Source of the DNA: Schmidtea polychroa
Taxonomy: Eukaryota
DNA length: 64,000 nt
Assembly: GCA_044892525.1 (NCBI GenBank)
Contig: CM097885.1
Location: forward strand, 160,270,001 to 160,334,000
Direction of reading: 5' to 3'
Below are positions 13,699 through 64,000 of this stretch, piece after piece. Numbering within the stretch: the first letter of the stretch is position 1; every line of letters begins with the position of its first letter. A model generated the notes under the pieces. The model had not been told where the DNA came from. It did no database searches and saw only the letters and a list, made by a program, of their open reading frames with translations. Made by a program: the position numbers and the translations under genes.

Positions 13699-15429
13699 TT
13701 ATGAAATTACTTGATTAACATCTGGAACATCGACTCCTAAATAATGTCCATATGCGAGACTGGTATTAGGACCCACCCAAAGGCGCTTGTCATCGTTGTT
13801 CGACAAGGCTATTTTATTATTTTTAAAAGTAAAGAGCTGGTGGTTGCGTGTTCCTATTCTCGTTTGTGGCACCGTATATACTACGCTGTTGTTGTAGCAG
13901 TCTAAATACGACTGGTGCCCTATCTCAGTATTACCAAGCTGAACTCCCTTTGCTTTTAAATGATCTTTATCCCCTAACAAACTATAATACTTAGGTCTTA
14001 AGAAAACCCATTCCTTATACCCTAAACCTTTACTCTCATCCTTAAACTTCCCTATCACAGAATCAAGGTTTCTAGAGTATAAGGGATGTGCTGGGTCATA
14101 GTTGCTAGTATCTAAAAGATTATCACGAATCATTGCCGGCAAAAGAGTGTCAAGCTTACAATGCTTTATCTCTAAGAAAAAGGAGTCAGTGTCACCGGCA
14201 ACGATATATATATCACAATTAAATTTAGACCTGTACTTGGCCAATTCCACATATTGTAGTTGATACATTCTTAGTTTAGACAAATCTAACACTGTTTGAC
14301 CAATATAGCTAGGCCTGTCTAAACATATAGAATCTTTATCCAGATGAGCCACAATCAGATCATCAGCAATTTTGATAGATTTTCTGAAAGTTGGCTTTGA
14401 GGCATATACAATCATCTTTTCAGCTGAATTGCATAGCCTCAAATTCATCCTTTTCTTTAAGTTCTCAATGGATTTCCCATATAAGCTGTTGTTATAAAGC
14501 TTAAACAAATCTCTATATAACTCACTGGTGGATTGTGCTCTTTATGTTGTGTTTTTACCAATGTACGATTTAAAAATGGGTGCTTGCGTGAATTTAACTG
14601 CTCTATAAATTTTAACCACCGTCACACCGAGTGAAAGATAAAGTTTAAGAAGTCTCCAATGAAGAACATAGTTCTTCTTTGGCCAATGCGTGAGCATCAG
14701 CTTCTCGACTTTCGAGTTCGGTGGACACATCTTTTCCGCAGCAATAGGAAAGTCATTAAGGAAGTCATGCAAGCATTCGGGTATATCGATATCAACTTCC
14801 ATAGTATACCCATATGGAAGGTTATCAATATCATCATTCACACATTCAGAAAGTATAATATCCAAATCATCATACATCCATACAAAGTCAGCATAAGGCA
14901 GATTTTGGCTTAAGGCCCAACCATACAAGTTATTAATATCTATGTACAAGAGTTCAGTGTCTTCAGAACTAGCAACATAATGTTTGTTAACAAATGTTAA
15001 CCCACCCCGTATCCCTCCTTCATAGAAATTAAACATTTCCATGTCCTGCAAAAGTTCTATAGGTTCCGTTAATGTCATAAGCGCTGAGGCCCATGACATA
15101 CCGGGAATGCCATAGAAATTAAGAGGCTCAAGACCATTGTAAGCAATGGCCTTTGCACGGAATTGTTGAAAATAGTCTGCGAGGAGAAATACATCTAATT
15201 TAAGATAAGTTAACATGTAATCTAACATGTTGTTGCAATTTTGCTGAGTCCAAATAACTTGGGCTAATGCATACTCATCATTAGACACTGAATCCCAGAT
15301 CGGAGGTAGTTCAAGAGTTGATTCCAAAACCTCAAGCGATGTAGCGAAGTCATATGGAAAGATACCTTTGGATCGAACAATTGCGCCATCAAAAACAGAA
15401 GAAGTTAAAGGCAGATCGGAAAGAGTCAT
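13699..15429 (-). pseudogene. Family-B DNA polymerase of Polinton/Maverick-adintovirus type, 5'-truncated, one in-frame TAA at 14542-14544
   Basis: Motif A YIDINNLYGWALS, motif B KLYNNSLYGK, motif C GDTDS, plus GIRGG, GKFKDE, LRPKYYS, KAKGV. The two listed ORFs are in the same frame, joined by TAA-RAQSTSELYRDLF. Confidence 0.88.
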
Positions 15430-37850: not shown

Positions 37851-37922
<72 letters not shown>

Positions 37923-38097
37923 ATAACTATTATAATAGTGTCGAAACTTGTGAAATACTCTTACAGCATAGATTTCAGACTTGTGGCACTATTCGTACAC
38001 ACATAAGCCTTCCTCTTTATTTGGATAATGGGAAACTATAAAAGGGGAATCTATGTTCCATCGTCGGCAAAACATTTTATTACACAATCAAAAAGAA

Positions 38098-38142
<45 letters not shown>

Positions 38143-41100: not shown

Positions 41101-44100
41101 AACTTGCTTGGGAAGAGAGGGTATTCCGTTATGACACCTTTGTATAAACCATAATAATTGCGACCTTTATTATAATTAAACTGATTAATTTGCTTCTCGA
41201 CTACTTCTGGAACATAATCTGTTTCAATAACAATTGGTGTTAATTACTTTAATATGATTGAACAGGAACGTCATTGCATCTCATCCACTATTTCTGAACA
41301 TTAAAATTGCGAAGTTCTATCTTTGGTTGCAAATAAATTCAGGTGAATTTCACCGACATTAATATTAATATTTAAAAATTTTTTAATTATAAATAGAAAA
41401 TTTAAATAAATTCTAATAATATTTGTGATCAGAAAATATATTTTGGATGATTGGTATAAAAATGCCATAAAATTTATTGCAATAACCATCTTCCAAACTT
41501 TTCTCATTTGACTTTTATAGTGAGCTCATAAATGAACATCAATACAAATAAGCAACATGTGGCGCATTTTATGCATTATGAATGTGTTAAAAACATTAAT
41601 AATTATGGGAATGCTAATATTTGAAAGGCATGATAATATTTAATTTTTACAAATTTATTTATTAACTAACTAATTACTTGGAGAACCTGATGTTTGATCC
41701 TGCCTAGTCTTGTAAGATCCATCTAGAAAATTGAAAAGTTAAGACAAAAAGTATAGTCTGAAAGTATGCTCACGGAAATAGACCGTGTTATTAATTATAT
41801 TAATCATATTAATAATATTGGATAGAGGCTGCACCTAGTGATGCAAACACTGTCATTTTTACCGGGAAACTCCGGATTTGGAGATCATTATTTGGGCCCA
41901 GATTAACAATACAACTCTTCTGGGTTGGGTCAGTGGGTTAATTCAAATTTACAATTTGGCTTATATTTTCAATACAAGCTAAAAACTAAACATATTATGC
42001 ATGTTCCCACCAAAAACCGAGATCCTAGTCGAGAAAGTCGACACAACAAACAATGTAATCGTCTCTGGGCTGGTAGACTTGTATAAATTAGAATTTTTGG
42101 AAAATAATGTATAATGAATTTTTGAATTTTAATTTTTTTTGATTTACAACGAATTGAATAAATTGTGTAAATGTAGATTTATATGTTTTTATTATCTCCT
42201 CCTTTCCACAACAACGAAATTCTTTTTCTCCGGGTCAACATTTGAACAAAAAATGTATATATATTTTGAATTGAATTTATTAATCTAATTTTATGGAAAT
42301 GAAAAAGAAAAATTTTCTGAAGTCCTATTTGTTACCATTATTGCGAAGAATCTGGATTCTTTTTCTATATAATTTAATATTTTCATATCAAAATGCAAAA
42401 TGTTAAAATTTTTTAAAAAGTTTATTTTTCACTAGAATTTTAATTTCTTTATTTCATCCTTTCCATATGTTTGAAACTGATGGTCGTTTAATAAAATTTT
42501 GATCAGATTTAGTGAAGCATGAACTTTTCCATAGACACAAATGTATTAGATGCATTTCATTAAGACTGATTGTAGTGTGGAGGTAAGTGATGGAGATAAG
42601 ATGATGGTGGGAGGATTCTGGATAAACCAAGCTTAGAAAATACAAATAATGTTGGAGGTAACGATGAGTGTGGCCCAAAGACTGTGAGCGCGATACCTTT
42701 TGAGTATGTATACAAATAATGGATTTCAACGTCACAAAACGTGACGGGCATGGTCTAGTGAGGGATAAGTGCATGAGTATTAATCTATTAAAACATTGAG
42801 ATAAAACAATTATGATCATATTTCTTCCCATTGTGCATTTGACCTGTTTTCTAATAATTCCAACATACAACTTTTTCCTTGAGTATTTTGTTTGTCCTCC
42901 CATATAAGGATATATAAATTAAATAAAGTATATAAGATATAAAATAATTTATAATTTGAATTCTTAAAAGGTTGAATGATAAGTTGACCTGTTTTATCAT
43001 CCCATTGAATTTTCTTGATTCCAGATTGAGAATTTACGATTTTGATCCCCTGAATGCAATTTAACAAATGCTCTAACGGTACTCCTTCTATAGATTCATC
43101 ATCTTAAAGAATTTTTAAAAGGCATGTTAAAAAAAGCCTTACCAGGTGATTCTGTATTTTCTTCGGATTCCCGAATGTTATTCAATGGCTCCGACTCCAA
43201 TTGATCAGGTGCATTTGTAGCAATGGGAATTTTCATAATTTTGATATCATGAAATTCACTTTTGTAACAAGACAAAAAGCTTATTAAATGAACAGATCCT
43301 TTATGAGATTGCAAGATTTTATGAACTTGTTCCTTGAATAATTTCAATGATATCTCGACATTCGGTAGAATAGCTGATTCAAGAGCTGCAATATAATCTT
43401 CTGTTCCTTCTTTGCAATGTTGAACACAAACTAATGACTCCATAGTTTCACCTAACTGAGTACAAACAATAAACTTTTATTAATATATTTAAAAGAAATT
43501 TTAGGATAAGTTAAATTTCTAGCAAAATTCATAAATACCGTTAAAAGAGATGAAGTTATTTTGCTATGTTCCTGGTAAGTAAATGTCCTTTCCTATTTGA
43601 TTTTGCCCTAAAATAATAAAAAAGACTGCTGTTTCCTCAAACTTTGCTTTTGTTATCAGAACAGTGGTATTTTGAAAGTTAGTTATTTCTCGGAATATTC
43701 AGAATGAATTCACTTCTAAATGAACTTGGAGTAATTATTGAAAAATTCGAAAACTTTTCAAAAATAACAGTAGAAATAGCATGATCCTAAGCACAACAAT
43801 TCTGTCAAATAAACCAATTTATGAAGACAAGAGAAAAGGGTTCTCAGTGGAAGCATTTGCCAATATATGTAAATTATGTAATGCAGACAACATCATTCTT
43901 TGGTTGTCATCATTTTCAATTAATAAATATTAGAATGTTAATGAAAGATTTATACCTCATAATTTTTTAAATTAAAAATATTAAATTTACACTAAAATAT
44001 ATACGCGTATATAGAAGTCTGGGTGGATAGGTAGTAGAAATTCCTATTCGAATATCGAAATACCGAATTATTCACCTTTTTTAACTTTTCGATATTCGAC

Positions 44101-48768: not shown

Positions 48769-49758
48769 TGTTAAGTTTTATGATATCAAAATCAACCGTT
48801 GGTTACTCTGACTCCACGTGTTCCAAAATCAATAAACACAAACTCCCAACGTATATTTGTTTTATAACAATTCACAACTCTCAACAATTAATCACACTGT
48901 TGGTTAATCACAATTCTCACACAATTTCAGATCTAACTCCGCCCTGGAAGGTCTCGCCCTTGTACGATTTAAAAAATAAGTTTCACCTTTTGTTTGATTC
49001 CGCTCTCTGATCCGAACTCTTTTAATATTCCTTTCTGACTCCTAAATTCCTCTTATAATTCCTTTTTCCTTTTATTTTATTCCTCGAACTCCTATCGTCT
49101 GTTTCTTCGTATCCCTACCTAAGGCTATCGCCGATTATGTGAATTTTGAGTTTCCTTATATACTCCCATAATTGTTGTAATTGCCCCATTTTTGACCTAA
49201 TTGGTTTTGACTTCTTTAGCTATCATTCCCTAATTGACTATTTTTGTTGACCCTCTTCGTAATTCCCCTTCTTTTGTTTACCCTCGTTTATCCGGTTGTT
49301 TGGATAATTGCCCTCTGAATTCCTCGTTTGTTTACCCTTCCAAATTGCCGTGCTCGGGTTTTCTTCATCGCTCGGGTTCTCCATTGGCTCGGGCTTTCCA
49401 TTAGCTCGGGTTTCCCATTAGCCAATTAATTAATTAATTAATATTTTACGTTTTTCCACATTTGTCTGTTTTACGACCCTTTCTACACATTTTCTAACTA
49501 TTTCTTGCTCACTGTCTTCTTCACCATCCCCTAATCTACCCCTCTCCCATTTTCAGCTTCAATTTCGATAACTTCTCACTTTATTCCACTTCCTCAGGTT
49601 TGCGCATTTTTCCATTTTATGTCTGATTGTACCCTTTTATAGTTCTGTTTTTATCATATCTTTCTTTGCCATTGCTTCTCTGCTTGACCGCCATTCAATT
49701 TCGGGTTTCCTTTTAATCTGAACTATATGATTTAATAATTTATTTTCAAACCTCAACA
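48769..49758 (-). mobile_element. Solo LTR, same family as 7100-8145
   Basis: TG...CA ends with 4-bp TSD TTTA; shares AATTAATTGGCTAATGG.AAACCCGAG repeats and the terminal AATATACGTTGGG...GGAGTCAGAG...AACA block. Confidence 0.88.
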
Positions 49759-50161
49759 TTTATGACATTGAATTATAAAATTTTTAGTTATATTATAATG
49801 AACTAGAGAGAGAGACGATGAACAAAAAGTAAAATGATTCTAACAAACGAGGCAAGTTTTTGACTATTTGGATTACTAAATGCCCTTTTGGAATGTCAAA
49901 GTGTCAATGGAAAATTTCCGGAGCTTTGCATAATTTATTTTAGGTTTATAGTTATTTTATTTTATTTTTATTTAATTCTTCTGTAAGTATAACTATATTA
50001 GATTGTTACATTTTAATCACCATTGCCGTTTTTGACAATTTCTCAATTAGGTTTGGTTTTCTTTTTGGTCATTGTCGTCCCCATAACGTCGGGGAAAGGA
50101 TATTTAAAAAAACTATACAGCTCACCTCGGGACTATTTAAACTATACGGCTCACCTCGGGA

Positions 50162-50415
50162 CTATTTAATGCCCTATGTAAAAAATATGAAATAAAACGC
50201 AACCGAATCGCTGCTTACAACTCACAAGTAAACGGAAAAATCGAAAGATTACATAGGATACTTAAAAAAAGCATTAGAAACAGAGCAAACGACAGATATT
50301 GGCTCACCGAACTACCGACAATCCTACTGGGTTTAAGGAGCACCCCCAAATCAATCGACAACGATAGCTCTTCTTTTAAAGTTTTCGGCAGACAATCAAA
50401 TCTCCCATCACTCAA
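50162..50415 (+). pseudogene. Gypsy integrase C-terminal core fragment
   Basis: LFNALCKKYEIKRNRIAAYNSQVNGKIERLHRILK...WLTELPTILLGLRSTP...VFG. Confidence 0.8.
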
Positions 50416-50651
50416 AAACAAAACAACAAAAAATACAGAAACAAACAAACAAAAGTAATTTTAAAAAGGAGACCTGACGCAATAGTAAAATTGAAGAAAA
50501 TAAAAAATCGATGCAAAAAGAAATTAGAGAAGAAATTTCGAGAAATAATAATCTTGGAAATAAAAAGGACAAAAATCTGTGAAAACAAAAGAAATTGAAT
50601 TTAAGAATCGTCAAACGTGTTGGGGTTACACCTCGGCTGACCACTCTACCA

Positions 50652-51109
50652 TGTTGACGGGTCTAAGGGTTGATTGTCCATCTCGAATAAAAGGTGCCAC
50701 CGATTTGTCAACCTGGAGTGAAACCCCACATAACTTTCTTCCAACATAGTGCCCGTGAATCACTTCACGTTGGTACTGCACTATGCAGGCGAGACGCCAG
50801 CAAGCAGGTGAGCTTCTGCCTTAAAACTACTCCTTGCTGAGGCCTCGACTTCCCATTCACGACTGCCGATAGAAGGGCTTACGTCCATTTCCTTACACAA
50901 CCGCTTATCGGGATTCGCTGAATGCAAATTGGGAATTTCTCACTAGATCTTGCGGGTTCTCTACTCGACCCACTTAATTAAAGTCTAATTATTCATGAAC
51001 GAAGACGTGTAAGACAACAAGATTTATTAATTTCAATGTTATGACACAAGGATTCAGCTGTACACTTTACTAACGTTTATCGAAAGAAGAGAAAACATCG
51101 TAATCAACA
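50652..51109 (-). mobile_element. Putative LTR-like segment (TGTTGA...TCAACA), relatively GC-rich
   Basis: 6-bp terminal inverted repeat; minus-strand AATAAA followed by a GT-rich tract; no TSD, boundaries uncertain. Confidence 0.35.
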
Positions 51110-51151
51110 TAGATCGGATCCTTGTTCCTCATCCTGACCGCCACTGGGATT

Positions 51152-51904
51152 TTATTGTTTCTCCCATTCAGTGTCGGCGAATAATTCGTCGAGGTTGAAA
51201 AACTCGGAAGCGTTCTCTTCCCACCTTACGCCAGCGGCTGATATGATTCGTGCCGAGGGTCCCGTTGTTAGGTCGATGGACACGTGAGAGTTGCCACCGC
51301 TGGTTGAGTCCTCTATTGCTGGGATGTTTGGCTTTGTAGTAGCGCGCTCGCGCTGTCTCTTCTTGCGCTCTGCACGAGAGAGTTGTTTTCGCTTGGGTTT
51401 GCTTGAAGATGCCACTTGCAGAAGGGTGACTGATACGGATGGACTAGCAGTGGGGGGCTTACTGGTACCCGTGATGACAACATCTGGTCGCTTGGGGGAC
51501 AATTCGGTTTCGACGCAGTCTCGGCACGGTCTCTTGAATGGTGGAGATGGATTCGAGGAAAGGTTGTGATGAGGCGGAAAGATGTCATCGGCCTCTCGGA
51601 TGGGAATCTGCACTATTTTTCGGGTTGTAGCCGCCTGCACGTAAACCTTATGCAGTGCCTCGGATTGTTCTCTGATTAGACTTCTTTGGGCACGGCTCTC
51701 AGATATTAGCGCGTCCCGGCAATGCTCGCTACGATCGAGCTTCCTTTGGATCTCTTTCATCCGAGCGGGACTAAACCATGTCCCTTCCAGCTCGTCTATC
51801 TTCCTCTTGTAACGTCCAATCTGAGTTTGTAGGTCCTTTATCACCGTATTTTTATCCGCGCACGAGAAGCACGGCCGTAATGCTGATTTAGTGGTTGGTA
51901 GCAT
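51152..51904 (-). CDS. Uncharacterised protein (CxxC + coiled coil, Pro/Ser linker, basic NLS-like stretch, acidic W/F-containing tail); probably TE-borne
   Basis: Intact, relatively GC-rich ORF (262 aa from 51940; likely start 51904 after an acceptor-like TAG). Confidence 0.65.
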   Translation of the reverse strand: MLPTTKSALRPCFSCADKNTVIKDLQTQIGRYKRKIDELEGTWFSPARMKEIQRKLDRSEHCRDALISESRAQRSLIREQSEALHKVYVQAATTRKIVQIPIREADDIFPPHHNLSSNPSPPFKRPCRDCVETELSPKRPDVVITGTSKPPTASPSVSVTLLQVASSSKPKRKQLSRAERKKRQRERATTKPNIPAIEDSTSGGNSHVSIDLTTGPSARIISAAGVRWEENASEFFNLDELFADTEWEKQ

Positions 51905-53854
51905 GCTTGCTATAAATAATACTAATGAAATGTAGAACATACGATTTTAGAATAAATTAGATACGACCTACGGCCATTCGTGGATGCTTGACCGACGAAA
52001 AGAAGGAAAACTTATTCTACAATCCGGTTTTACCACGGATCTTATTTGTTGAAACAATTTATTTAACCAAAGGCCATCGGTTTGACGCATGCTATTAACT
52101 TTGACTCTCTATTGATCTAACCGTATACATGAGGGGCGTAATAATTAATAGGGGGTAAATATAATATTGGTGAAACACTATAATAATGCTTTAGTAGAGG
52201 GACATTATAGTATGCGACTACACCTTGCTATAAATCATCTATTTAAATTTATTACAAACAAATTACTATCGCTATTCTCAACATATTTTTTGATTCGAAA
52301 TTTGTTATTGGAAGTGCACTTTTAATTCGGTAGTGAATGTGATTATCTATATTGTCTACCATTTGTCTGAGAATATGTGATGAGTTTACATCAGCCATTA
52401 CTTGAACACCCTAATGGGATATCTCATCGGTCATAACACATGTCCAAATTTACGGATACTACTGTCGACTAGTTGATTACATTATCGACCTATTGTGAAT
52501 GTCACGTGTCGCGACTATTATGTATGCTAGTCTGATATTCTGTGCTCTCACCACATGGATTCGTGTATGGCTACTATCTTATCTCACTCACTTGGTGTAT
52601 GCCATTTTCACGGTGATTTTATCGATCCTGTTGTCGTATGATTTTCTCTGCACAGTGATTTAATTGAGTTATGATTTATGCTACCGCCAGTTCTCATCGC
52701 GGAATTTTACCCTTATCAACTTGTGTGAATGATCACCATCGTTTGGAAATTTATTGGATCTTTTCAGTGATCGTCGAGGGAATAATGCTACCAAATACTG
52801 AAGCATATTACTACTCTCGTCATTCTACTCGGATTTTCCTATTCAGATGTAATGCCGTCTCGATGAAACCTGCCCTTAGCCATTCGAAATTTTCTCTCAG
52901 GTTCAATAATTTGGATATATACAGTGATGCCCTGGCTCTTATTGTAGAAATAAATGTTATTAATTGAATTTGATGATATTTTACCTGTTTATAATTTTTG
53001 AAATAACTAAGTCTATAAAAACTTTCTGATTATAATATTAGAGAGGTTTTCGTAGAATCTCGCATTTTTCAGTTTCGAGTTAGTTAAAGTTTTTAGGATA
53101 CTTTCGTAACCCGACATACAATCTGGACAGGCTAGATGACGTTGGGTCTATGATAACGGAATTTCATACGAAATTAGTTCTACTGAGTCCGGCAAATAGA
53201 CGTTGTCGCAATTAACTTGATGAAACCATGTTTCCAGATGAAGCGTACTATGAGATGTCGTTATTTTTGACGAAGTTCACTAAATCGTTGTCTGGATCTC
53301 ATTTTTCAATAGGGGTAAGATTTACGAAAACGACTTGACGAAAGAAAAAGGAATGCGACGCCCTCAGTCACTGTGTAAATCCTTGAAAATCCCTTCATTC
53401 GTACGACTATCTCTGTGAAAATCATTGTCTGCCAGCGATTCTTTTAACCATGACCCCTTGTGATAATTTAGTCGCATCTTCAGCGATAGGACCCGTGAAG
53501 AAGCCTTCACATTTCGGCCCAATCTAGCTGCGTGATTGAAATACTCCATGTCCACCGGCTGAGCTCCCGAAGGCACCTCATACCATGACATGGAGTATCT
53601 CAACTCCACGTTACTCGTTAAATGAAAATTCATAAAATCTTTAATTCAAATAAAATACGGACATCTGGATAAAAATATTTTATTAATTCTGAAATACTTA
53701 AATAATACAAATTACATCAATACGTTAAAGTTATTAAAATGAAGAATCAAATGAAGAGAGTTAACTAAAATATTTAATCGTTAATATTTAACATTACTAT
53801 TAGCTTTGCAAATACTTAAATAAATCTATAAACAAATGAAATACCCCTCACTAT

Positions 53855-54483
53855 TGTTAGGCTGAGTCAAAATTCAATGTTGTTCGTTCCAAATAGTCCT
53901 AATGGTGGTCCGTTGGATGTCGATTGTTGTGATGAATGGTATTTCGGTCTCTGAACTGGTTTTGAATAGATGTGGAGTTTTCTGAATGACGGTTGCTTGG
54001 CTAGTAGTGTCGATCCTATGAAATGCTCGGGGTTAACAGTAAAAACAGTAAACATTTTTCTTACCTATGAAATGCTCGGGGTTAACAGTAAATTTAATGT
54101 TTTTGGTAGTTGTATATATATCAAATTCTTATTTGTGCGGACCAATCAGAGTTGAGTACCGCTTATTTCTATTAATTTAATATAATTTTCTTGTTTTTAG
54201 GTTGTTTTTTCCTTATTTTCTTTATTTTTAATATGTTTTTCTATTTATTTCCTTAATTTCCTTATTATTTCTTGAATTCCTCTTTATTTATTTGTCAACT
54301 TGTTCTATTTTAATCTTTTCTTAATTTTATTTTTTGTTTTAATTCTTATGTCTTAATTATTATTTTCCTTATATCTTATTCTATTTTATTTCTGATTTTA
54401 TTTATTTTATTTTTATTTTTCTTAATGTTCTACTTCCCTACTTTCTTATTTTTCAACGATTAAATTTTCGACTCAGCCCAACA
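53855..54483 (-). mobile_element. LTR (629 bp), probable 3' LTR of the large cargo-bearing element
   Basis: About 20-bp terminal inverted repeat TGTTAGGCTGAGTCAAAATT / AATTTTCGACTCAGCCCAACA. Minus-strand A-rich U3, ATTGG (CCAAT) box and TATATATA. Flanks are not a TSD, consistent with one LTR of a larger element. Confidence 0.6.
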
Positions 54484-54717
54484 AATCACTCGGGGACCCA
54501 TCAAAATTGCGTCCCGCAATTGCATAATTAACTTAATTCATTCATTCAAAAAAAAAAAAAAAAATATAACACGAACACTGAAAATTATACAACAATGATA
54601 AAAATTTTATTGTAAGATCAAGGTCAAAGCAAGACCAAGCAAGTATCACTTAAGGTGATAGTTGGTACATACAATAAAAGTTTCCACATATAATAACACA
54701 AATGTTTGAATTAGAGT

Positions 54718-55386
54718 TTATGAATTGTTAACCATTGATGCTTCTGCTGGCGGCTGTTGGTTGGTTTGGGTATTGATGTTGAGATAGGTCTGACTATTAG
54801 ATTTCGGCTGGATTGGTTGATTACTCGGGGTTCGAGGTCGGAATGGGGTTGGGTTAAGATTTGTCAGGGGCACTTCTTGAGGATTTTGGTTCGAGGTTAC
54901 TCTTATTGATGTCGAGATTCTACATCTATTTCGAACTTCGTAAATTTTCATGAATATTGGTAGACATAGGAGGAGGGTCTCTGCGATCACCACATATATG
55001 AGATAATGGGTGTCATTGATCTCGGGAGGTGTTTTTGGCTTTTCTACAAGATTTTCAAAATCCTCTTGTTGCATTTGTTGTTCCAACTGGTCGATCTGTT
55101 GGCTTTGTTCGAAGATTTGTTTGTTTATCATTTTACAAATGGGATTCTTTTTACACATTGTTTGGATGTTGTTGATGTGTGATCGGGTTGATTGAATGGT
55201 TTGGATGATATGGGTTTTTACGGTCATCGGGTATGTGCATTGACTGGATTCTTGTTTAGGTTCTTGATTTTGATTTCGGTAATCTCGTACGATTTTCGGT
55301 TGGGCGTTTAATTGTTTGTTCTCCATCAGAATCATCAATACCATCATTGTTATCATCATCTCGCCTCGCATGATACTATTATACAT
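54718..55386 (-). CDS. Element cargo: type-I membrane protein (signal peptide, helical Cys-containing ectodomain, TM, Pro/Asn-rich tail)
   Basis: MMITMMVLMILM..LNAQ leader; TM YLIYVVIAETLLLCLPIFM; intact 222-aa ORF. Confidence 0.75.
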   Translation of the reverse strand: MYNSIMRGEMMITMMVLMILMENKQLNAQPKIVRDYRNQNQEPKQESSQCTYPMTVKTHIIQTIQSTRSHINNIQTMCKKNPICKMINKQIFEQSQQIDQLEQQMQQEDFENLVEKPKTPPEINDTHYLIYVVIAETLLLCLPIFMKIYEVRNRCRISTSIRVTSNQNPQEVPLTNLNPTPFRPRTPSNQPIQPKSNSQTYLNINTQTNQQPPAEASMVNNS

Positions 55387-55426
55387 TCATTATGTTTATT
55401 TACAATTGGTTTTAATGACCCTTAAT

Positions 55427-56179
55427 TTAATGGTTCTGATTTGGATTATTTTCACCGATTCTCATCAAGGTGGACTCTGCTTTAATTACCCTGTGTCTTA
55501 ACTCGGGCAGCATTTCCAATTGTCGGTCTTTTTCACGGGCTTCTCTCTTTAGATGTCTAATTTCTTTTTCCAAGCGTCTAATTTCTTCCCTTTTCTTTTC
55601 AAGGTTTCTTTTTAGCTCGATTTGTAGGAGATCTTGTTCGTTTTCTTGCAGGTAATTTTGTTGTTGATGTTTTCTTTCTATTTCTCTATATTTGCGGACC
55701 CACTTCCTCATTTCTTTACTTTCCCGTTGGTTTTCTTCTAGTTGTCGTTTTAATTTATTTATAGCTGTTTGGCGCTCCTTCGCCTCAGTTTTCCAGTAGT
55801 CTTGGATTACCTCCTTTGCTTTGAAGCTTGCCCTCTCTTTCCATAGCTCTTCCGCTATCTTTTCCCAGTTTTTCCCTCGCTTCCTTTGTTCGTGTAGCCA
55901 TTCATTTTCCTCTTCCGTTTCTCTTTTTATTTCCCCCAACGCTTCGCACTCTTTCTTTAACACCTTTATCATTTTCCGGTCCTCTAGGTATTTGTTTATT
56001 AATCTCCCGTTTTCGTATTTCTCTTCCCGTAACTCGGCCTTTAGCGTTTGTGTTTCTGTTGTTTCTGCCTCAATCTCTCCCTCTTCTACGTCGCTCATAA
56101 TTTCTATCATTTCCTCGATTTTCATATCTATAATATGTACAGTTAATGGTGCGCTATAGTGCGACTTATACGTATACAT
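55427..56179 (-). CDS. Element cargo: coiled-coil protein (likely start 56125)
   Basis: E/K/R-rich heptads over about 220 aa; intact ORF. Confidence 0.75.
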   Translation of the reverse strand: MYTYKSHYSAPLTVHIIDMKIEEMIEIMSDVEEGEIEAETTETQTLKAELREEKYENGRLINKYLEDRKMIKVLKKECEALGEIKRETEEENEWLHEQRKRGKNWEKIAEELWKERASFKAKEVIQDYWKTEAKERQTAINKLKRQLEENQRESKEMRKWVRKYREIERKHQQQNYLQENEQDLLQIELKRNLEKKREEIRRLEKEIRHLKREAREKDRQLEMLPELRHRVIKAESTLMRIGENNPNQNH

Positions 56180-56293
56180 TGATATAAAATTTAATAGTTT
56201 GGGTTACAGTCCCTTGAATACTTTTACAATACTTTAATTTTTTTGTTTGGGATATACGTCCCGGTTTTTAGTTTTTCATCTTTTCATCCACCC

Positions 56294-57403
56294 TTATACG
56301 AAGGTTTCCTCCTGGCCTACATAACCTTCATCACTATCGACCGCGGAATGTAACTGTATCGCAATAGGGTCGTATGGTAGGTAATATTGGGGAATTTGAG
56401 CTCTCAATTCATTAATTTCGTCTCTTAGAGCTCGAGTGATGTTCAATTCCTCGTCGAGCAGATAGGTGAGATACCTTGTCTCTTCGTCTTTCGCCTCTAT
56501 CTGTTTGTCTAGGGCCTTGATTTTCTCGTCGCCCTTCCATTTTTCAATTTCTATTTCTAAGTTTTTAATATTTTCGGTGTACATTTTCCTTTCGTTTTCT
56601 AATTTTCTGTTTTTTCCCGCTAGGACCATGTTTCTTTGTTCCAGCGATCCTTGTAATCCATTAAGGTCTCTTTTCATTTCTTCTACCTGATTTACTAATT
56701 CCACAACCCGTCCCGCTTGTTGGGTTATCATCTCTTCCATTGCGGCATTCTCGTGCTCTCTTATGTCGCACTTCATTGCCAAATGTCGCTCAAACTCCAT
56801 AGCCTTTGTTTGCCAGGTTTGGCTTCGGGCGGCGACCTTTCTCAACCTTTTCAATTCTTCCTTTATTATTAAATTCTCCTCCCATTTACCTTGTTCGCTT
56901 TCATATCCGAGTCTCATGGGCAATTCTTTCATCTCTTTTTTCATTTCTCTGTTTTGTCTTTTCCATTTTCTCGCTTCTGCCACTAAGTGCATCATTTTCC
57001 TGTCTTCTATTTGTTTTTCCGCTTCGCGCTTGGTGTTCTCATCGGTAAGTCTCTTTCTCGCTTCCTGCACTAGCTGCTTTAAGTAGTGGCTGTGTGCTTC
57101 TTGGCGGGTATTTTCTAGTGACGCCCATTTTGATGCTCTTTTGCATGCTTCTGCTTCCGCTCTTAAGTTGTGTATTAACCATTGGTATTGACTATTCTCA
57201 TCTTCTCTAGTTTCTTCGATGTGATTTCGGGTGAGATTAGTTAGTTGGAACATTACTTTGTTCCATTTTTTGTTATGTTCTCGGAGAATTTGTGTCTTGT
57301 TGACATTGGTTGGGTCTATCACAGTTTCGGTTATTTTCTCTTTTGTCATCTCTAAATCATAGACATCGATTAATCTTTTATTATGAAAAAGGAATTTATT
57401 CAT
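56294..57403 (-). CDS. Element cargo: long coiled-coil (SMC/myosin-tail-like) protein (likely start 57349)
   Basis: 369-aa intact ORF with continuous heptads and an acidic C-terminus. Confidence 0.8.
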   Translation of the reverse strand: MNKFLFHNKRLIDVYDLEMTKEKITETVIDPTNVNKTQILREHNKKWNKVMFQLTNLTRNHIEETREDENSQYQWLIHNLRAEAEACKRASKWASLENTRQEAHSHYLKQLVQEARKRLTDENTKREAEKQIEDRKMMHLVAEARKWKRQNREMKKEMKELPMRLGYESEQGKWEENLIIKEELKRLRKVAARSQTWQTKAMEFERHLAMKCDIREHENAAMEEMITQQAGRVVELVNQVEEMKRDLNGLQGSLEQRNMVLAGKNRKLENERKMYTENIKNLEIEIEKWKGDEKIKALDKQIEAKDEETRYLTYLLDEELNITRALRDEINELRAQIPQYYLPYDPIAIQLHSAVDSDEGYVGQEETFV

Positions 57404-57541
57404 TATTTACTGTTTCTTGGGGAATTTTCGCATCATTTTTGGGTTTTCATATTTAGGGTTTTCATACTATTATTATATAATATTTTATTGGTTATATACA
57501 CCGATATATACAGATTATTATATACAACATTATTCGATTGG

Positions 57542-58930
57542 TTACTCCGTTCTACCCTTCTCCTCTTTCCTCACGGTCATCTTGATATATATGGTATCAT
57601 TTCTCGCCATATCTTCTACTCTTTGTTGTGAGATGAACGTAGGTGCTCCTGTTGCTGATCCTTCTTCGTTGAGGGGCCTCTGGTAAGCTATTTGATTCCC
57701 CGTTGTTTTGAAGCTTTGCTCATGTATACTTTGGTTGTTCATCAGAGTAATATCGATTTTTGCCTGGAACGGCCATTCTAATATTTCGTCGTATTCTCCT
57801 TTACATAACAGAAAGAAAATCGAAAAGTGCGTATCCAATCCGGTTCCGTCCCCGTTGGGATATACCTTCATTTTCATTTTGTACCCATTTTTCCAAGAAT
57901 GGAATGTAGGACTTGTTATTCTTGTCTCTTCTCCGGTTTTTGCTTTTCGTATTCTTTCTTTTACTCCCGTTATTTTCCATATGTAGGGTGCTGTTGGGGT
58001 TATCTCATTTAGATTTATTTCCCGTATTTTCTGATGTAGCTCCTTGGCCTGATTATTACTGATTTCTGTTCGGTTTATTTGCATCTTTATGTTTGCTCGG
58101 GCTTCTTCGAACGCTTCCCTTTCTTCTAGTAGTTCTTTGACTAACACTTTCAACGATGTTATCTCTATCTCCATTTGTTTTACTTTCTCTTCGCTTTCTT
58201 GTAGCGCAGTCGACCACATTTCTGCGTGAGTTGAAGCATTTTCTACTAAATGATGTGGTAACTCACCTCGGTGTAGTAGTTTCTGACAACCCCATCTACC
58301 TAGTACACATGTCATTCTTTTCTTTGCGCATTCCCTTAGATGCTGTGCCACCTTCATTATTTCCCCTTGGTTACATCCGTTTGGGCATTCCCCACTGAAC
58401 TCTGCACATACTCTCTCCTCTTGGACATTGTGATGTTTGAGGGTGAGATTTATCCACGTATCTATTTCTCCACAGTGTTCACATCTTTCCAATCTCTCTT
58501 CACACTGCCTTTGATGCTCTTTTTCTTCGCTTGCTCGAATGGTTTTATGGCACCTTTCACACTGGCCAATTCTGTACATACATTCTCCCATATGTTGTAC
58601 TACCTTCCATATTACTCCTTTCCATTCGCATGGGGCATTTTTGCATCCCAGGTTGGTGTTTAACATGTCTTTCACTGCGGCTTTATCCTCGTTAGTGTCT
58701 TCTAAACTCGATATTAGTGTCTCTTTACACACCGGGCACCTCTGTGGTCTATTCTTTATTGCTTCACTGATACATTCTTTACATACTCTGCATCCACATT
58801 GCGTTTGGTGAGGTTCCTTTAACAACTTTTCACATATTCCGCACATAACATGTTTGTGTATTCTGATCGTTGTAGATTTTCGGACTTGCTCGACAATCTC
58901 TCTGAACTCTTCTCTTTGTCGTTTATCCAT
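57542..58930 (-). CDS. TRAF: Element cargo: full-length TNF receptor-associated factor (RING, about 5 TRAF zinc fingers, coiled coil, MATH/TRAF-C)
   Basis: CGICEKLLKEPHQTQCGCRVCKEC...CPVC; C..C...HxxxC fingers; MATH YIWKI...SPTF...GYKM...YPNGDGTG..THFSIFF.L.KGEYD..L.WPF...G.P.F. Intronless. Confidence 0.95.
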   Translation of the reverse strand: MDKRQREEFREIVEQVRKSTTIRIHKHVMCGICEKLLKEPHQTQCGCRVCKECISEAIKNRPQRCPVCKETLISSLEDTNEDKAAVKDMLNTNLGCKNAPCEWKGVIWKVVQHMGECMYRIGQCERCHKTIRASEEKEHQRQCEERLERCEHCGEIDTWINLTLKHHNVQEERVCAEFSGECPNGCNQGEIMKVAQHLRECAKKRMTCVLGRWGCQKLLHRGELPHHLVENASTHAEMWSTALQESEEKVKQMEIEITSLKVLVKELLEEREAFEEARANIKMQINRTEISNNQAKELHQKIREINLNEITPTAPYIWKITGVKERIRKAKTGEETRITSPTFHSWKNGYKMKMKVYPNGDGTGLDTHFSIFFLLCKGEYDEILEWPFQAKIDITLMNNQSIHEQSFKTTGNQIAYQRPLNEEGSATGAPTFISQQRVEDMARNDTIYIKMTVRKEEKGRTE

Positions 58931-59015
58931 TCTATAATTATATGTACAAATAGTTCTTATCGATACAGATTCGATATTTTATTTACAATTATTTACATTT
59001 TAAGCTAGGTTTGGT

Positions 59016-59399
59016 TTAGGGTTCGGAAGAGTCGGCTTCGTGCCCGCTCTCCTCTCTATTCATTAGCCATTCCGACCAGTCTTCTATTTCTGTCTGTTCT
59101 GCTTCCTCCATCATTCTGTCTATTTCAATTTCCCGTCGACGGCTATATTGGGTTATCCTCTCTATCTCTCTTTGCATTTGTTCGATTTTTACCCTCTGGT
59201 CTTCAATTATCTTCAAATAACTAAATCCTCTGTTCATACTCTCGATCAGGTTTCTGTGCATCGTCAGTCCTTGTTCTTGCAAATTGGACACTAATTGTGC
59301 TAATACGGCACATTGTTGCTTCCATAATTCTTCAGTTACTGTATTGTGGTTCATTTCGTTATTTCCTTGATCCATTCCTAATTTATATACACTTTTCAA
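59016..59399 (-). CDS. Element cargo: small coiled-coil protein (likely start 59375)
   Basis: Intact 127-aa ORF, heptad-rich, acidic W-containing tail. Confidence 0.65.
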   Translation of the reverse strand: MKSVYKLGMDQGNNEMNHNTVTEELWKQQCAVLAQLVSNLQEQGLTMHRNLIESMNRGFSYLKIIEDQRVKIEQMQREIERITQYSRRREIEIDRMMEEAEQTEIEDWSEWLMNREESGHEADSSEP

Positions 59400-59535
59400 C
59401 TCTTATGTAAATTTAATTTTATTTTATGATTCCCGTTATTGTATAATATTGATACCGCGCTTATATAGAGATATAGTACTGTTATATACATAAGATATAC
59501 TTACTTTTTACAATTATATACAGTCATATTCCTTT

Positions 59536-62500
59536 CTATATACGTGAGTTTGGAGGGCGCTGAACGTTCCAGGCCTCCACCCACTGTTCTTGTTTGATAT
59601 CACTTGGTCGTTTCACTCGATGTTGGAAGTTTCTGATTCGGGTCATTTCTAGTTCTCCGCGATGTCGTTTATCTTTAATTATTTTTATTGTTCCCCCCGT
59701 TATGATTAGGAATGCCCCTGTTATTATTATCCCACTGATCCACATCATCTGCTTCACGCTTATACTCTCTGGTTTTTCCTTGTTTGTTAATGTTGATATC
59801 GCTTCTGTACTTTTCTCGTTTCCTCTTTTGCCATTTCCTTTCATCATTTCCCGTATTCTTGCTATTTCCTCGTTCATACCCTCCTTTGCCATCTTTTGTA
59901 TTTTTTCCATCTCTTCCTCCGAAACATAGTTGTCCTGAGCTTCCTCACCAGTTTTCTTGTGCTTTCCTCCTTCGTTCTTTTCGTCGTGGTTTTTTCTTTT
60001 CTTTCCTCTTTTCCCCGGGTATCGTCGGCATTCTCTTTTTGATTCATTCCTCCAGATACAAACCGTGTATTCTTTCGGCGGCTGCTGCTGCGTCACATAT
60101 TGATGGCATCTCTCGCCTGGTCCTAATCTTGAAATACAGACTTTGTGCTCTTTTCTAGGTTGGATCTGCGTTATTACTACTTCACCACCTTTTCCTAGGT
60201 GTACCTCTTTTCCTTTGACGTTCGTTATTCTCTTCCCGTCTCGATTTCGGTATGCTTCTTGTATTCTTACTTCTGTTATTGGTTCTGTGGCCTCATTTAT
60301 CAGTACTAGTTTCTGATACGCTCTAGACATGCATCTTCCTAGTATGCACCTTTCCTTTAAGTCCCATTCTTCCTTTAAATCCCACTGCTGCTCTTGTGCT
60401 TGCTTTTTCTTTTCTTGCTTTAGTTCATCCTCTTTGCTATCTTGATTCTCCGCTTCTTTGGTTTCTTTTATCGTTCTCGTCCCTCCCTGAGCTGTTACTA
60501 ACTCTATCATGGTAAGCATAATTATCATTAATATCATATTTGTCTCTATTTCTTTGTTAGTGAAAGGTAGGCATACCCTCTGTTTTCCATTATTCGATTT
60601 TTCCTCCTCTTTGGTCTTAGTTCCCGGGCTGTTTCCCTCTCTTTTCGTATCCGAATCCTTGTTTTCCGGTTTACCCTCCTCCTGTTCTCTTTTCTCTTTA
60701 TCCTCCTTTCGGCCTTTTCCGTTATTGTCATCGTGTTTATCTCCCCCGCTGTCGTTTAAAATGTCGTCCTCGACATTTATATCGTTCAATAATCTGCGAT
60801 ATGCTGTTAGCACTCTGTTTCTTGCTAATTTTGCTTCGAATTCAAACTCTTTTCTACCCGTTGCAGCATGTCTCTTTCTATTCCATTCTTTAACTAACTC
60901 TCTCAATTGCATACGACGATGTTTCCCAATTCGTTGTTGCTCGTTCTGATTTTGCGTGAATTTTAGGTCTTCTCTATTTAATACTATTAAAATTATTTTA
61001 GGTGTCCCCCCCTTAGTTAGGGTATTCTTTACCATCGCATTTTCTCCGTTTTCGTAGAATTCGTTTACATTTATCGCATATTTATTATTTTGTGGTACTC
61101 TCCAGGTTAATAATAATTTCATTGCTTCTAGATTTTTCCGTACCGCATTCCATTGAAACTGAGATGTGTTTTTGCACATATTTTCGACTTCTTCTTTTGT
61201 CGCATTTTTGCAAATAAATCTGATCATTTCTAAGTTTGGCTGTATGGTTGCCCAGTCCAAGGTGGAATTTCCTTCATTGGACTTTTCGTCTAGTTTCGAT
61301 CCTGATTGATGTAGGATGTGGAGTGTTTTTGGGTGTATTTTCGTTATAGCTGCATACATCATGGCGGTTTCACCTTGTTCATTTTTCGTGTTGGTTTCCT
61401 CGCCCATCTCTCCAAGGATTCTCACGATCGTTATTGCTCTATTTTCTTTCGCCGCTAGTATTGCTTGTTGTAGGGGTGTTCTGGAATCCTTCGTTACCAT
61501 CGTAAATGCTCGAGGCAAGAAGGTTTTGATTTTCCCGATATCTAAATCCGTGGTTTGATCTCTTGCGTATGTGTGTACGGCTTTTATTATTTTGGACAAT
61601 ATTATTTCGTCTGGCAGCTCTAGCATTTCCTCAAAGAACACTTCTTTTGCTTTGCGTATTATTGCCTCTTGATCTATACTCATTGATTTGGTTTCGATGA
61701 CGTTGTTTGTGACCGTTTGGTTCGTTGTTGACTTTGATTCCCTGGATTTCTCATACCTTATTTTCGTTTTCTTTCCGTTTGGATTATTGATTCGTTCCTC
61801 TGCTGTAAGTATTTGGATAATATCCAGGTAATTCTCGCGGATGTTATTCATTGTGTCCATCATATATAACACACTTACCGTTTCCCAATATTTATTTCGT
61901 ACTTGGTTAGTAAATTGGAATAGGGATTTTTCGAATGTGTCGATTCGCTTTTTTGCTAACTGTTCGTCTTTATGATTTGTGAATTTTATCCCTCGTTCTA
62001 GTAATTGATTCGGGATTTCGAATAACTGATGTCCTTTCATAGCTTCTCTCATCAGCGTGTTCTCTCCTCTCGTGAACGCTTCGTTTACGTTGATCCTATA
62101 ATCGTTTCGAATTGGATTTCTCCATGTGATTAATATTCCGGTAATTGTCGTCAGTTTTTCTTTGATCGCTGTTAACAATCCATCATACATGTTTCCGACT
62201 TCCCGATTGTCCTCATATGATAGTAGTTCCATCAATGACGTGAACGCCTCGGTACTTCTCCCTTCGATAGCATGGTGTAGAGCGTTTTTCCGCTCGTGGT
62301 CTTGTGTAGTTATTTTCGATCCGGTATCGAGTAATGCGGTTATAATGTCTTTTGTTTTGCCTCTGTTTGCGGCTATCATTAATGGTGTGTAACCTTGGTT
62401 GTTTGTTTGTTCTGTTGATCGCTTGCAGTCGTGAAATGCTTCTATTGTTTCTAGTATTTGCTCGTTGTTACCTACTTTCATGAGTTTGTGTAATGGTGTG

Positions 62501-64000
62501 TCTCCGTAATGATCTGTTATTGTAAATAATATTGGCCATTGGCTTTTGACTACTCGCAATAATGGGTGTGTCCTTTCTCTATTTGCATAGTTCTCGATCA
62601 TCGTCAATAATCCTCCTAATATTTCGAAATCTAATCGATCTTTTGCCCATCCAGGTATTTTAATTTTTACCTCTTTTACAATCTTTTCCGCTTCTGATGG
62701 TTGGATACCTAATCGTCCAGTGATCGGTTCTGCGGGTTGTTGCATCATGTTCATTCGGTAGGTTTGCGAACGTGTGGTTAATGTACGGCCTTCTGGTTGA
62801 CTAGTGGCTGTTTTTGGAATTGATTTGCATCGTGCCACGTTTACGTATATTGGTCTGGTAAAGGGGTTATTTACCAATTTCACTCTTACATTAGTTTCGC
62901 CTACGAATAAGATCTCATATGGTCCTTTTCCGTTGCGTTGTAACTTTTTTGTGGTTCCTGGAATTAATTCCGGGGTTTCTATCATTACCCAATCACCTGT
63001 TTGGAACGTATGTTGCTTCACGTTTTTCTTTCGATCGTGTAAATCTTTATAACTTTCCTGGTAGAACTTGATATTTAATCCCGCAGTTTCCCAAATTTCT
63101 TGCATTCTTTCCTTGAATTTCGTAACATAATCATCGATCTCCATATACTGCGATATCGGTGGTTGGTATTCCAGGTCCATTGGCATATTACATTCTCTTC
63201 CGTACATTAATTTGAATGGGCTCATTTTCGTTGATGCGTGAATCGACATTCTGTACGCCATAAGACATAGGTTTATATATTCGTCCCAATCTCGTTGGTG
63301 ACGGTCAACGTAGTTTGATAACATTTGTATAAGTGTTCCATTAAATCTTTCCGTCATCCCATTGGTTTGAGGGTGGTATGGAGATGTTCTTAGTTTTGCT
63401 ATTTTGAAGTAATTTGTTACTTCGCTCATTATCTCACTCATAAAATTAGTTCCCTGATCGGTTAAGATTTGTTTTGGTGTTCCATATCGGCAACATATCT
63501 CTTCTACCAAAATTTTTGCGATTGTTTTAGCTTTTTGGTCTGGCATCGCGAATGCTTCTGGAAATTTCGTAAGAAAGTCTGTGATCACTAGAATGTAAAC
63601 GTTTCCTTTATCTGACTCTGGTAGTGGACCAACTACGTCCATGGATATCATTGTCATTGGTTCTATTGGTACTGGCATTGGCGTTAAAGGTGCTTTCCAT
63701 TTCGATCCAGTATTCTTCCTGGTTGCACAAGTTAGACAATTTTTTACCCATTCGGTTACATCTTCAGTTAACGTAGGCCAAAAATATTTCTGTTTCATTC
63801 TTGCTAACGTCTTTTTCGATGACATATGTCCTCCCAATCTCCCATCGTGATATTGCGTTAGTAACTCTTTTCGTCGGTTTTCCGGTATACACATTAATCG
63901 TTTTTCCCCATCCATTATCAGCAACCAATCTTTCTCTATAATATATCGGTGTCGGTGTTTATCCATATGTTCTTTTAATTTTTGGTCTTTCGCATATACC
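59536..64000 (-). CDS. Pol C-terminus: integrase (H2C2 zinc finger, DDE core, GPY motif) fused to two ankyrin blocks and a signal-peptide/ectodomain/TM module; ORF open to the window edge
   Basis: H..GH...CLTC, SMDVVGP, TDQGTNF, YHPQTNGMTER, KGPYEI; ankyrin GDTPLH, GYTPLMIAA, RTPLQQA, GETAMMYAA; hydrophobic MILMIIMLTMIELVTAQ and WISGIIITGAFLIITGGTI; no stops over 1476+ codons. Confidence 0.93.
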   Translation of the reverse strand, partial: VYAKDQKLKEHMDKHRHRYIIEKDWLLIMDGEKRLMCIPENRRKELLTQYHDGRLGGHMSSKKTLARMKQKYFWPTLTEDVTEWVKNCLTCATRKNTGSKWKAPLTPMPVPIEPMTMISMDVVGPLPESDKGNVYILVITDFLTKFPEAFAMPDQKAKTIAKILVEEICCRYGTPKQILTDQGTNFMSEIMSEVTNYFKIAKLRTSPYHPQTNGMTERFNGTLIQMLSNYVDRHQRDWDEYINLCLMAYRMSIHASTKMSPFKLMYGRECNMPMDLEYQPPISQYMEIDDYVTKFKERMQEIWETAGLNIKFYQESYKDLHDRKKNVKQHTFQTGDWVMIETPELIPGTTKKLQRNGKGPYEILFVGETNVRVKLVNNPFTRPIYVNVARCKSIPKTATSQPEGRTLTTRSQTYRMNMMQQPAEPITGRLGIQPSEAEKIVKEVKIKIPGWAKDRLDFEILGGLLTMIENYANRERTHPLLRVVKSQWPILFTITDHYGDTPLHKLMKVGNNEQILETIEAFHDCKRSTEQTNNQGYTPLMIAANRGKTKDIITALLDTGSKITTQDHERKNALHHAIEGRSTEAFTSLMELLSYEDNREVGNMYDGLLTAIKEKLTTITGILITWRNPIRNDYRINVNEAFTRGENTLMREAMKGHQLFEIPNQLLERGIKFTNHKDEQLAKKRIDTFEKSLFQFTNQVRNKYWETVSVLYMMDTMNNIRENYLDIIQILTAEERINNPNGKKTKIRYEKSRESKSTTNQTVTNNVIETKSMSIDQEAIIRKAKEVFFEEMLELPDEIILSKIIKAVHTYARDQTTDLDIGKIKTFLPRAFTMVTKDSRTPLQQAILAAKENRAITIVRILGEMGEETNTKNEQGETAMMYAAITKIHPKTLHILHQSGSKLDEKSNEGNSTLDWATIQPNLEMIRFICKNATKEEVENMCKNTSQFQWNAVRKNLEAMKLLLTWRVPQNNKYAINVNEFYENGENAMVKNTLTKGGTPKIILIVLNREDLKFTQNQNEQQRIGKHRRMQLRELVKEWNRKRHAATGRKEFEFEAKLARNRVLTAYRRLLNDINVEDDILNDSGGDKHDDNNGKGRKEDKEKREQEEGKPENKDSDTKREGNSPGTKTKEEEKSNNGKQRVCLPFTNKEIETNMILMIIMLTMIELVTAQGGTRTIKETKEAENQDSKEDELKQEKKKQAQEQQWDLKEEWDLKERCILGRCMSRAYQKLVLINEATEPITEVRIQEAYRNRDGKRITNVKGKEVHLGKGGEVVITQIQPRKEHKVCISRLGPGERCHQYVTQQQPPKEYTVCIWRNESKRECRRYPGKRGKKRKNHDEKNEGGKHKKTGEEAQDNYVSEEEMEKIQKMAKEGMNEEIARIREMMKGNGKRGNEKSTEAISTLTNKEKPESISVKQMMWISGIIITGAFLIITGGTIKIIKDKRHRGELEMTRIRNFQHRVKRPSDIKQEQWVEAWNVQRPPNSRI

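Follow-up and report, generated by a model that had tools for sequence, protein, structure and literature searches.

A TGTAHATA motif and TAG-ATG starts in the spacers of a five-gene cargo array in a putative Burro-like retroelement of Schmidtea polychroa

We analyzed a stretch of 64,000 nucleotides (nt) of Schmidtea polychroa DNA (the window; contig CM097885.1, positions 160,270,001 to 160,334,000), whose minus strand holds the 3' part of what appears to be a giant Ty3/gypsy retrotransposon of the Burro type, with a pol polyprotein followed by five cargo open reading frames (ORFs), c1 to c5. The spacers in front of the five cargo ORFs were found to share the motif TGTAHATA at high density, and each ORF starts at an ATG situated 1–4 nt behind a TAG. 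The TAG-ATG pattern appears to be real for these five sites and is richer than first noted in a preliminary description of the window, and the mechanism suggested by it, in which splicing at the TAGs resolves one long transcript into separate cargo mRNAs, is plausible, if unproven.

With a GC of about 0.27, the window is rich in AT; a fragmented MARF1-LOTUS gene and a kinase exon lie in it among several transposon remnants. On the minus strand, a purine-rich unit extends from position 64000 to 54718, first with 1487 open codons (pol) and then with five ORFs of 119, 462, 351, 232, and 217 amino acids (aa), arranged as follows.

59536..64000, minus strand: 3' part of the Ty3/gypsy pol polyprotein, 1487 open codons with Integrase_H2C2, rve, and Ank_2, running off the window; integrase and two ankyrin blocks come first, followed by a stretch resembling a signal peptide, a part resembling an ectodomain, and a transmembrane-like helix (membrane stretches judged from the sequence itself)
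59376..59535, minus strand: spacer 1, 160 nt; TGTAHATA at 59522, 59490, and 59391, GTAAGT at 59504, AATAAA at 59423, TAG ending at 59378
59016..59375, minus strand: cargo ORF c1, 119 aa, no Pfam family
58931..59015, minus strand: spacer 2, 85 nt; TGTAHATA at 58997, 58987, and 58948, AATAAA at 58983, TAG ending at 58932
57542..58930, minus strand: cargo ORF c2, 462 aa, a complete protein of the TRAF type (RING, zinc fingers, coiled coil, MATH), intronless
57350..57541, minus strand: spacer 3, 192 nt; TGTAHATA at 57526, 57512, and 57500, the variant TGTCTATG at 57365, AATAAA at 57489, 57400, and 57382, eight ATGs, TAG ending at 57352
56294..57349, minus strand: cargo ORF c3, 351 aa, charged, coiled-coil-like, 0 matches in the homologue search
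56126..56293, minus strand: spacer 4, 168 nt; TGTA at 56228, 56208, and 56178, TGTACATA at 56141, ATTAAA at 56238 and 56195, TAG ending at 56128
55427..56125, minus strand: cargo ORF c4, 232 aa, charged, coiled-coil-like, 0 matches in the homologue search
55372..55426, minus strand: spacer 5, 55 nt; TGTAAATA at 55404 overlapping AATAAA at 55400, TGTA at 55385, TAG ending at 55376
54718..55371, minus strand: cargo ORF c5, 217 aa, no Pfam family, a start resembling a signal peptide and a single transmembrane-like helix
54549..54717, minus strand: 3' end of the array; AATAAA at 54611, then a GT/T-rich stretch and a T run (read from the sequence)

Across the five spacers (660 nt in all), the motif TGTAHATA was present in 11 sense copies and no antisense copy, against a mean of 0.58 in shuffled sequences, with none of 2000 shuffles reaching the observed count. 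Per kb, there are 16.7 copies in the spacers, whereas the host flank has 0.08–0.15 and the coding DNA of the element 0, and the spacers hold 11 of the 27 matches in the whole window; TGTA by itself was present 17 times versus 6.8 expected. This enrichment is new relative to the preliminary description and is much stronger than the TAG-ATG pattern. The fifth position was A three times, C twice, and T six times, and the leading T was kept in 11 of 12 cases (11 TGTAHATA versus one VGTAHATA in the spacers), indicating that it belongs to the motif, which therefore agrees with a UGUA core rather than with a splice donor; a cryptic donor was rejected as its explanation on this ground. TGTAHATA corresponds to the consensus of Pumilio elements, and the UGUA core of CFIm25 is contained in it. 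With respect to position, one group of copies begins 14–23 nt past the upstream stop in four of the five spacers, and another copy or variant begins 14–18 nt before each ATG (exact in c1, c2, and c4; variants in c3 and c5). The TGT-to-TAG span is an identical 14 nt in c1, c3, and c4, and aligning the five spacer ends yielded only the TGTA...TAG-ATG block. A 14-nt pattern built from these three sites was not used as evidence, because it is circular and gave 8 further one-mismatch matches (2.9 expected), none of them at an evident start. Neither a stable RNA fold (z −0.82 to +1.66) nor a match to an Rfam family was found in the spacers, and a polycistron resolved by internal ribosome entry sites or ribozymes was thus rejected as unsupported.

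The six minus-strand TAG-ATG sites listed in the preliminary description, at 59375, 58930, 57349, 56125, 55371, and 51904, were confirmed letter for letter, with GA, A, AG, AT, TATC, and CAAGC, respectively, between TAG and ATG. A TAG lies 1–5 nt upstream of 6.0% of the minus-strand ATGs in the window (70 of 1160); the figure is 5.0% for the host flank (41 of 826) and 8.8% for the element (21 of 238). The background of TAG-N(1-5)-ATG is thus 5–9% per ATG, and the pattern lies above chance for the five element sites. When the last 50 nt of each spacer were shuffled with dinucleotides preserved, the TAG rule gave frequencies of 0.113, 0.101, 0.068, 0.192, and 0.024, and the looser rule of any YAG at 0–6 nt gave 0.156, 0.130, 0.281, 0.312, and 0.049, resulting, for five of five element ORFs, in a p of about 0.002 by hand calculation (YAG at 0–6 nt, two ATG tries per ORF). 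The combined pattern TGTA-N3-12-TAG-N1-5-ATG, which was set post hoc, has 6 matches in the window, 4 of which are cargo starts. As for the claim that every cargo ORF has a TAG acceptor, the presence of a TAG, as a candidate acceptor, held above chance for the five element ORFs, and the ORF at 51904 probably belongs to another, cis-spliced unit.

The choice of start codon matters here, and an internal ATG had been chosen in four of the six ORFs, not in five as the preliminary description had it. When only the first in-frame ATG is allowed, the TAG rule is passed by two of the six ORFs (59375 and 58930), so that the result rests on the second ATG in the other four. The choice of starts is independently supported by the composition after the ATG, by the purine at −3, and by P0001, the one homologue found (a match to c2), whose start falls no more than one residue from Met 58930. 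In the 45 nt that follow the skipped ATG, the composition was spacer-like at 57403 (T 0.40, GC 0.20) and 51940 (T 0.40, GC 0.29), whereas those after the chosen ATG were coding-like at 57349 (T 0.13, GC 0.36) and 51904 (T 0.24, GC 0.51); the support was weaker for 56125 over 56179 (T 0.18 versus 0.29), and the comparison was uninformative for 55371 versus 55386. A purine was present at −3 in all six chosen ATGs, compared with one of the four skipped ones.

To score the acceptors, we used a crude model made from nine hand-picked, unverified host sites and expressed each score as a percentile of host-flank AGs. The acceptors at 58932, 56128, and 51910 (92nd, 89th, and 96th percentile) resembled host acceptors, as had been claimed for all, whereas those at 57352, 55376, and 59378 (68th, 57th, and 44th) did not; within the array, therefore, only two of the five, those of c2 and c4, score like host acceptors. 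The GTAAGT at 59504, described earlier as a canonical donor just after the pol stop, does lie 32 nt past the stop (59536), but is nothing special as a donor. Nine GT(A/G)AG sites are present on the minus strand of 54.7–64 kb, GTAAGT occurs 32 times in the window versus 26.2 expected (a count reached by 9 of 100 shuffles), and the exonic side of the 59504 site is AAA, not AG. Furthermore, splicing from 59504 would leave c1 behind more than 4 kb of pol and could not give a monocistronic cargo mRNA, and the site was rejected as a cargo donor by its position behind the pol stop.

Every spacer contains upstream ATGs in one frame or another (2, 1, 8, 3, and 2 in spacers 1–5), which means that 5' ends close to the chosen ATG would be needed if the ORFs are translated by scanning, and a splice acceptor before the ATG is the simplest fit for such ends. 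We consider splicing at the array TAGs, in all its forms, to be slightly favored, and trans-splicing of the spliced leader (SL) is our favored form, although only tentatively and at less than even confidence. In a flatworm, a leader can make 5' ends at the TAGs with no donor being needed; weak acceptors, in addition, suit an RNA that must partly stay whole. The five gaps (160, 85, 192, 168, and 55 nt) are all on the same strand and under 300 nt, the limit used as a criterion for flatworm operons (PMC12582326), planarians trans-splice (PMC10899757), and the SL targets of Macrostomum are enriched in stem-cell genes (PMC8629364). In this mechanism, the element would, as expected from its family, be transcribed from the 5' long terminal repeat (LTR), outside the window, as one long RNA, part of which would stay whole as the genome and part of which would be cut up like a flatworm operon. 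Each spacer would serve as a short 3' untranslated region (UTR), with UGUA-type motifs, then A(A/U)UAAA, and then, 24–70 nt later, a deliberately weak UAG acceptor. This acceptor would receive the host spliced leader, which would remove the upstream AUGs of the spacer and place a capped 5' end 1–4 nt before the AUG. UGUAHAUA would be the target of an RNA-binding protein of the host, with Pumilio or CFIm25 as the likeliest candidates by their specificities, and would regulate 3'-end formation or translation of each cargo message; the GTAAGT behind the pol stop would be there by chance or as a U1 site damping the first poly(A) signal. The region around AATAAA 54611 is the best-looking poly(A) site of the unit and may act as such. 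The earlier proposal that one long transcript is resolved into monocistronic cargo mRNAs retains partial support from a shared, strand-specific spacer grammar, although its AATAAA and donor arguments fail. In its fullest version, which we regard as doubtful, a possibly env-bearing retroelement would carry a five-gene operon of captured and orphan genes resolved by the SL, one UGUAHAUA-binding host protein acting at both ends of the gaps would choose between genome RNA and cargo messages, planarian trans-splice sites in general might be defined by this motif, and the tail of pol may be a sixth cistron that doubles as a polyprotein tail.

Several observations weigh against SL resolution. The distance from TGT to the ATG (16, 18, 16, 16, and 14 nt) is steadier than that to the end of the TAG (14, 17, 14, 14, and 10 nt), and the TAG supplies the −3 purine when it lies 1–2 nt from the ATG; part of the pattern may thus be start context. 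The acceptors of c1, c3, and c5 are A-rich without a pyrimidine tract, and the trans-splice acceptors of Schistosoma mansoni are reported to be stronger and more U-rich than the cis ones (PMC5832876). AATAAA, stated earlier to be present in most spacers, is indeed found in four of the five, but at chance level (6 versus 5.0 expected, a count reached by 753 of 2000 shuffles), and its enrichment was rejected; AWTAAA is present in all five gaps and likewise not above chance (10 versus 7.2; 340 of 2000 shuffles). A flatworm leader has a terminal AUG (PMC12582326), which would not be in frame at any of the six sites, with upstream frames of 9, 3, 2, 2, 40, and 23 codons, an outcome with a probability of about 0.09 by hand calculation if the frames are equal. 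Finally, the leader is said to lose in competition with cis donors (PMC4558846).

The same TAG and upstream-ATG evidence applies to retrovirus-style cis-splicing, in which a non-coding leader exon near the 5' LTR would be joined to the five TAGs as weak alternative acceptors, giving nested messages that end near 54590 and carry UGUAHAUA as a 3'-UTR control. We regard this as fairly unlikely, although a non-coding leader gives no frame problem, AATAAA is unenriched inside the array with a clear signal and GT/T-rich tail behind c5, weak acceptors fit an RNA that also needs to remain unspliced, and spliced subgenomic RNAs are standard in the retroviral/gypsy class. The leader donor would lie outside the window; the only donor named, that at 59504, lies behind pol and yields no monocistronic message; five acceptors at 5 kb or more from the leader would need fine control; and the order UGUA, A(A/U)UAAA, UAG recurs in each gap. 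It is also unlikely that each cargo gene has a small internal promoter, with TGTA...TAG at 14–18 nt before the ATG as a start-site motif and with unspliced messages having very short 5' UTRs. The steadier distance of the motif to the ATG than to the AG and the poor scores of three acceptors would be consistent with such promoters, as would the existence of a planarian start-site motif reported at 30–40% of constitutive and stem-cell genes (PMC10558129). That motif, described as an Initiator, is found most often at genes of the constitutive and stem-cell classes (PMC10558129), which in Macrostomum undergo trans-splicing, and it may itself mark trans-splice sites. Most copies of TGTAHATA, however, sit just after stops and not before starts, TATAWA was rejected as an enriched element (9 versus 8.2 expected; 872 of 2000 shuffles), and an element that also terminated in each gap could not make genome RNA.

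Two further explanations dispense with new 5' ends or with the pattern altogether. The TAGs could be an AT-rich start context and the spacers 3'-UTR-like relics of captured genes, with the ORFs translated by reinitiation or leaky scanning on long RNAs; the −3 purine supplied by TAG at four sites, the intronless TRAF gene, which points to capture through RNA, and AATAAA at chance level are in line with this. Reinitiation is, however, inefficient after long ORFs and across spacers of 55–192 nt with up to eight ATGs, the spacers are unstructured, and perfect motifs between fully element-adapted ORFs suggest upkeep, making this explanation rather improbable. Least probable, to a degree that we would call very unlikely, is that the TAG-ATG pattern reflects chance and the choice of ATG, with only the TGTAHATA enrichment being real. 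Two of six ORFs passing the first-ATG rule, a pattern defined after seeing the data, and a sample of five speak for it, but p is about 0.002 under loose rules, the chosen ATGs are backed by composition, −3 context, and P0001, and three sites share the exact 14-nt TGT-to-TAG spacing.

The assignment of the element is based on its architecture. Pfam places a gypsy-type integrase (Integrase_H2C2 and rve) at the end of pol, the best integrase relatives have the order reverse transcriptase-RNaseH-integrase, and the nearest of them is 58% identical over 274 residues. A FastTree tree made on 37 of 144 rows puts the integrase in a clade of long-tailed pols with a support of 0.967, in which P0004 bears ankyrin repeats and P0016 and P0021 have an in-frame Monjiviricetes fusion domain. 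Ankyrin repeats after the integrase together with RING and MATH/TRAF cargo, the combination that marks Burro (GYPSM1-like) elements, were found here, and the element is thus probably a Burro-like giant Ty3/gypsy retrotransposon, the name being given by architecture only. The low GC content, like the architecture, is in keeping with a dugesiid planarian host. No long direct repeat that could be an LTR pair was found inside the window, the 5' half of the element lying beyond it, and no second copy was found in the window by tblastn or by repeat search. The integrase relatives P0004, P0014, and P0024 have an aspartic protease domain after the integrase, an unusual order. At ATG 60537, within pol, begin a signal-peptide-like stretch and a tail of 333 aa that resembles a membrane protein (60562-59536, minus strand); this ATG is preceded by CACTAAC, which is branch-point-like, and by a TAG ending at 60546, 8 nt before the ATG; the tail is possibly a sixth cistron fused in frame. 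No homology was found between c5 and this tail (best E 0.46).

Among the cargo proteins, c2 has MATH (Pfam, E 2e-27) and RING domains, and its top PDB matches are TRAF2/TRAF3, whereas c1, c3, c4, and c5 gave no family at curated Pfam cut-offs. Homologue searches returned 0 proteins for c3, 0 for c4, and 1 for c2, c2–P0001 was the only match between the cargo proteins and 151 fetched proteins, and an exact look-up matched 0 of 10 proteins. A single-sequence structure model of c5 (predicted local distance difference test score 49) was too poor for a fold search.

The sixth ORF of the preliminary description lies on the far side of the array.

51152..51904, minus strand: ORF c6, 250 aa, GC 0.51, behind a T-rich acceptor at 51910; probably outside the array

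It is probably an ordinary cis-spliced gene of a neighboring unit, set apart from the array by its distance (2.8 kb beyond the best poly(A) signal of the array), its GC of 0.51, its strong T-rich acceptor, the absence of TGTAHATA near it (none on the minus strand from 52916 to 51152), a possible cis intron of 58 nt (51967-51910), removal of which would bring in ATG 51977 in frame, and, downstream on the opposite strand, the remnant of an integrase at 50141-50452 (E 5e-6 when compared singly; Pfam rve_3 at E 0.006, short of the cut-off). Alternatively, c6 could lie within a very long LTR. The 4.4-kb block at 50074-54503 has ends of the TG...CA kind on the minus strand; near 54140 it has a CCAAT-like box, and it also contains several short AT-rich intron-like gaps, c6, and the plus-strand integrase remnant 50141-50452 with a 29-nt tandem duplication. 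The block may be a long LTR or a separate element. At 54015-54092, a 29-nt sequence is exactly duplicated 49 nt apart; read on the minus strand, its first copy has TAG at the end, with GTAAG immediately after, so that the duplication possibly frames a 49-nt intron. A 19-nt inverted repeat is present at 53854-53872 / 54466-54484, and at 54530-54565 (plus strand), short ATTC repeats lead into a run of about 17 A, which resembles a non-LTR insertion tail.

Elsewhere in the window, the MARF1-LOTUS gene contains a candidate 40-nt intron with an AAG acceptor at 43103-43142 (minus strand). At 5437-10592 (plus strand) lies a gypsy element in a decayed state, with 5446 and 10518 as the positions of its short terminal repeats, and a related, inverted piece is present near 49.4 kb (49345-49553, minus strand). 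Two adjacent ORFs broken by a stop at 13699-15429 (minus strand) look like a family-B DNA polymerase of Polinton type. A perfect 215-nt palindrome around an AT run, without a loop, at 37672-38101 is either a real element or an assembly artefact.

Burro and GYPSM1 are giant Ty3/gypsy elements of dugesiid planarians, and the present element resembles them in having integrase and then ankyrin repeats, MATH/TRAF and RING cargo, and separate accessory ORFs (PMC6431247); this type of element and its TRAF and ankyrin cargo are already known from that source. The in-frame fusion domain in pols of the same clade (P0016 and P0021) corresponds to the placement of env described for Burro, whereas the TRAF gene differs in position: a TRAF-C lies inside ORF1 in Burro1 and in an upstream ORF in the D. 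tigrina element (PMC6431247), while in the present array a full TRAF is encoded by c2, second among the five ORFs behind pol. Expression of Burro has been reported (PMC8532177, PMC10558129, PMC11410931), and the cargo of Burro1 reportedly protects stem cells (PMC13465017). The other Burro features, a length of more than 30 kb and a giant ORF1 with gag, env, BIR, and BCL2-like parts, concern a region outside the present window.

As to expression, the array is like the spliced subgenomic RNAs of gypsy env and of complex retroviruses in that downstream ORFs each lie behind a weak acceptor, here a candidate one, and differs in that those systems are not known to have repeated 3'-UTR-like motifs in every gap and that no leader donor is visible in the window here. 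The solo LTRs of ta-TRIM elements, spliced to an ancestral trans-splice acceptor, likewise combine an LTR element with SL acceptors in a flatworm, although in that case it is a host gene that the LTR drives, through cis-splicing, and the element has no operon of its own (PMC4558846). Our literature search, which did not cover most subscription papers or the main Burro papers (Grohme 2018; Lee 2026) that may describe transcripts, found no LTR element that resolves its cargo by trans-splicing; the Burro section of one review says nothing on how the accessory ORFs are expressed (PMC6431247). The array shares with flatworm SL operons same-strand genes less than 300 nt apart and an AG close before the downstream start (PMC12582326, PMC8629364, PMC5832876), but those are host genes with SL reads, whereas this is a retroelement array that needs full-length RNA and has A-rich putative acceptors. 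If the leader is used, the element would be a retroelement running an operon with host trans-splicing, and this would explain how such elements can gain genes without added promoters.

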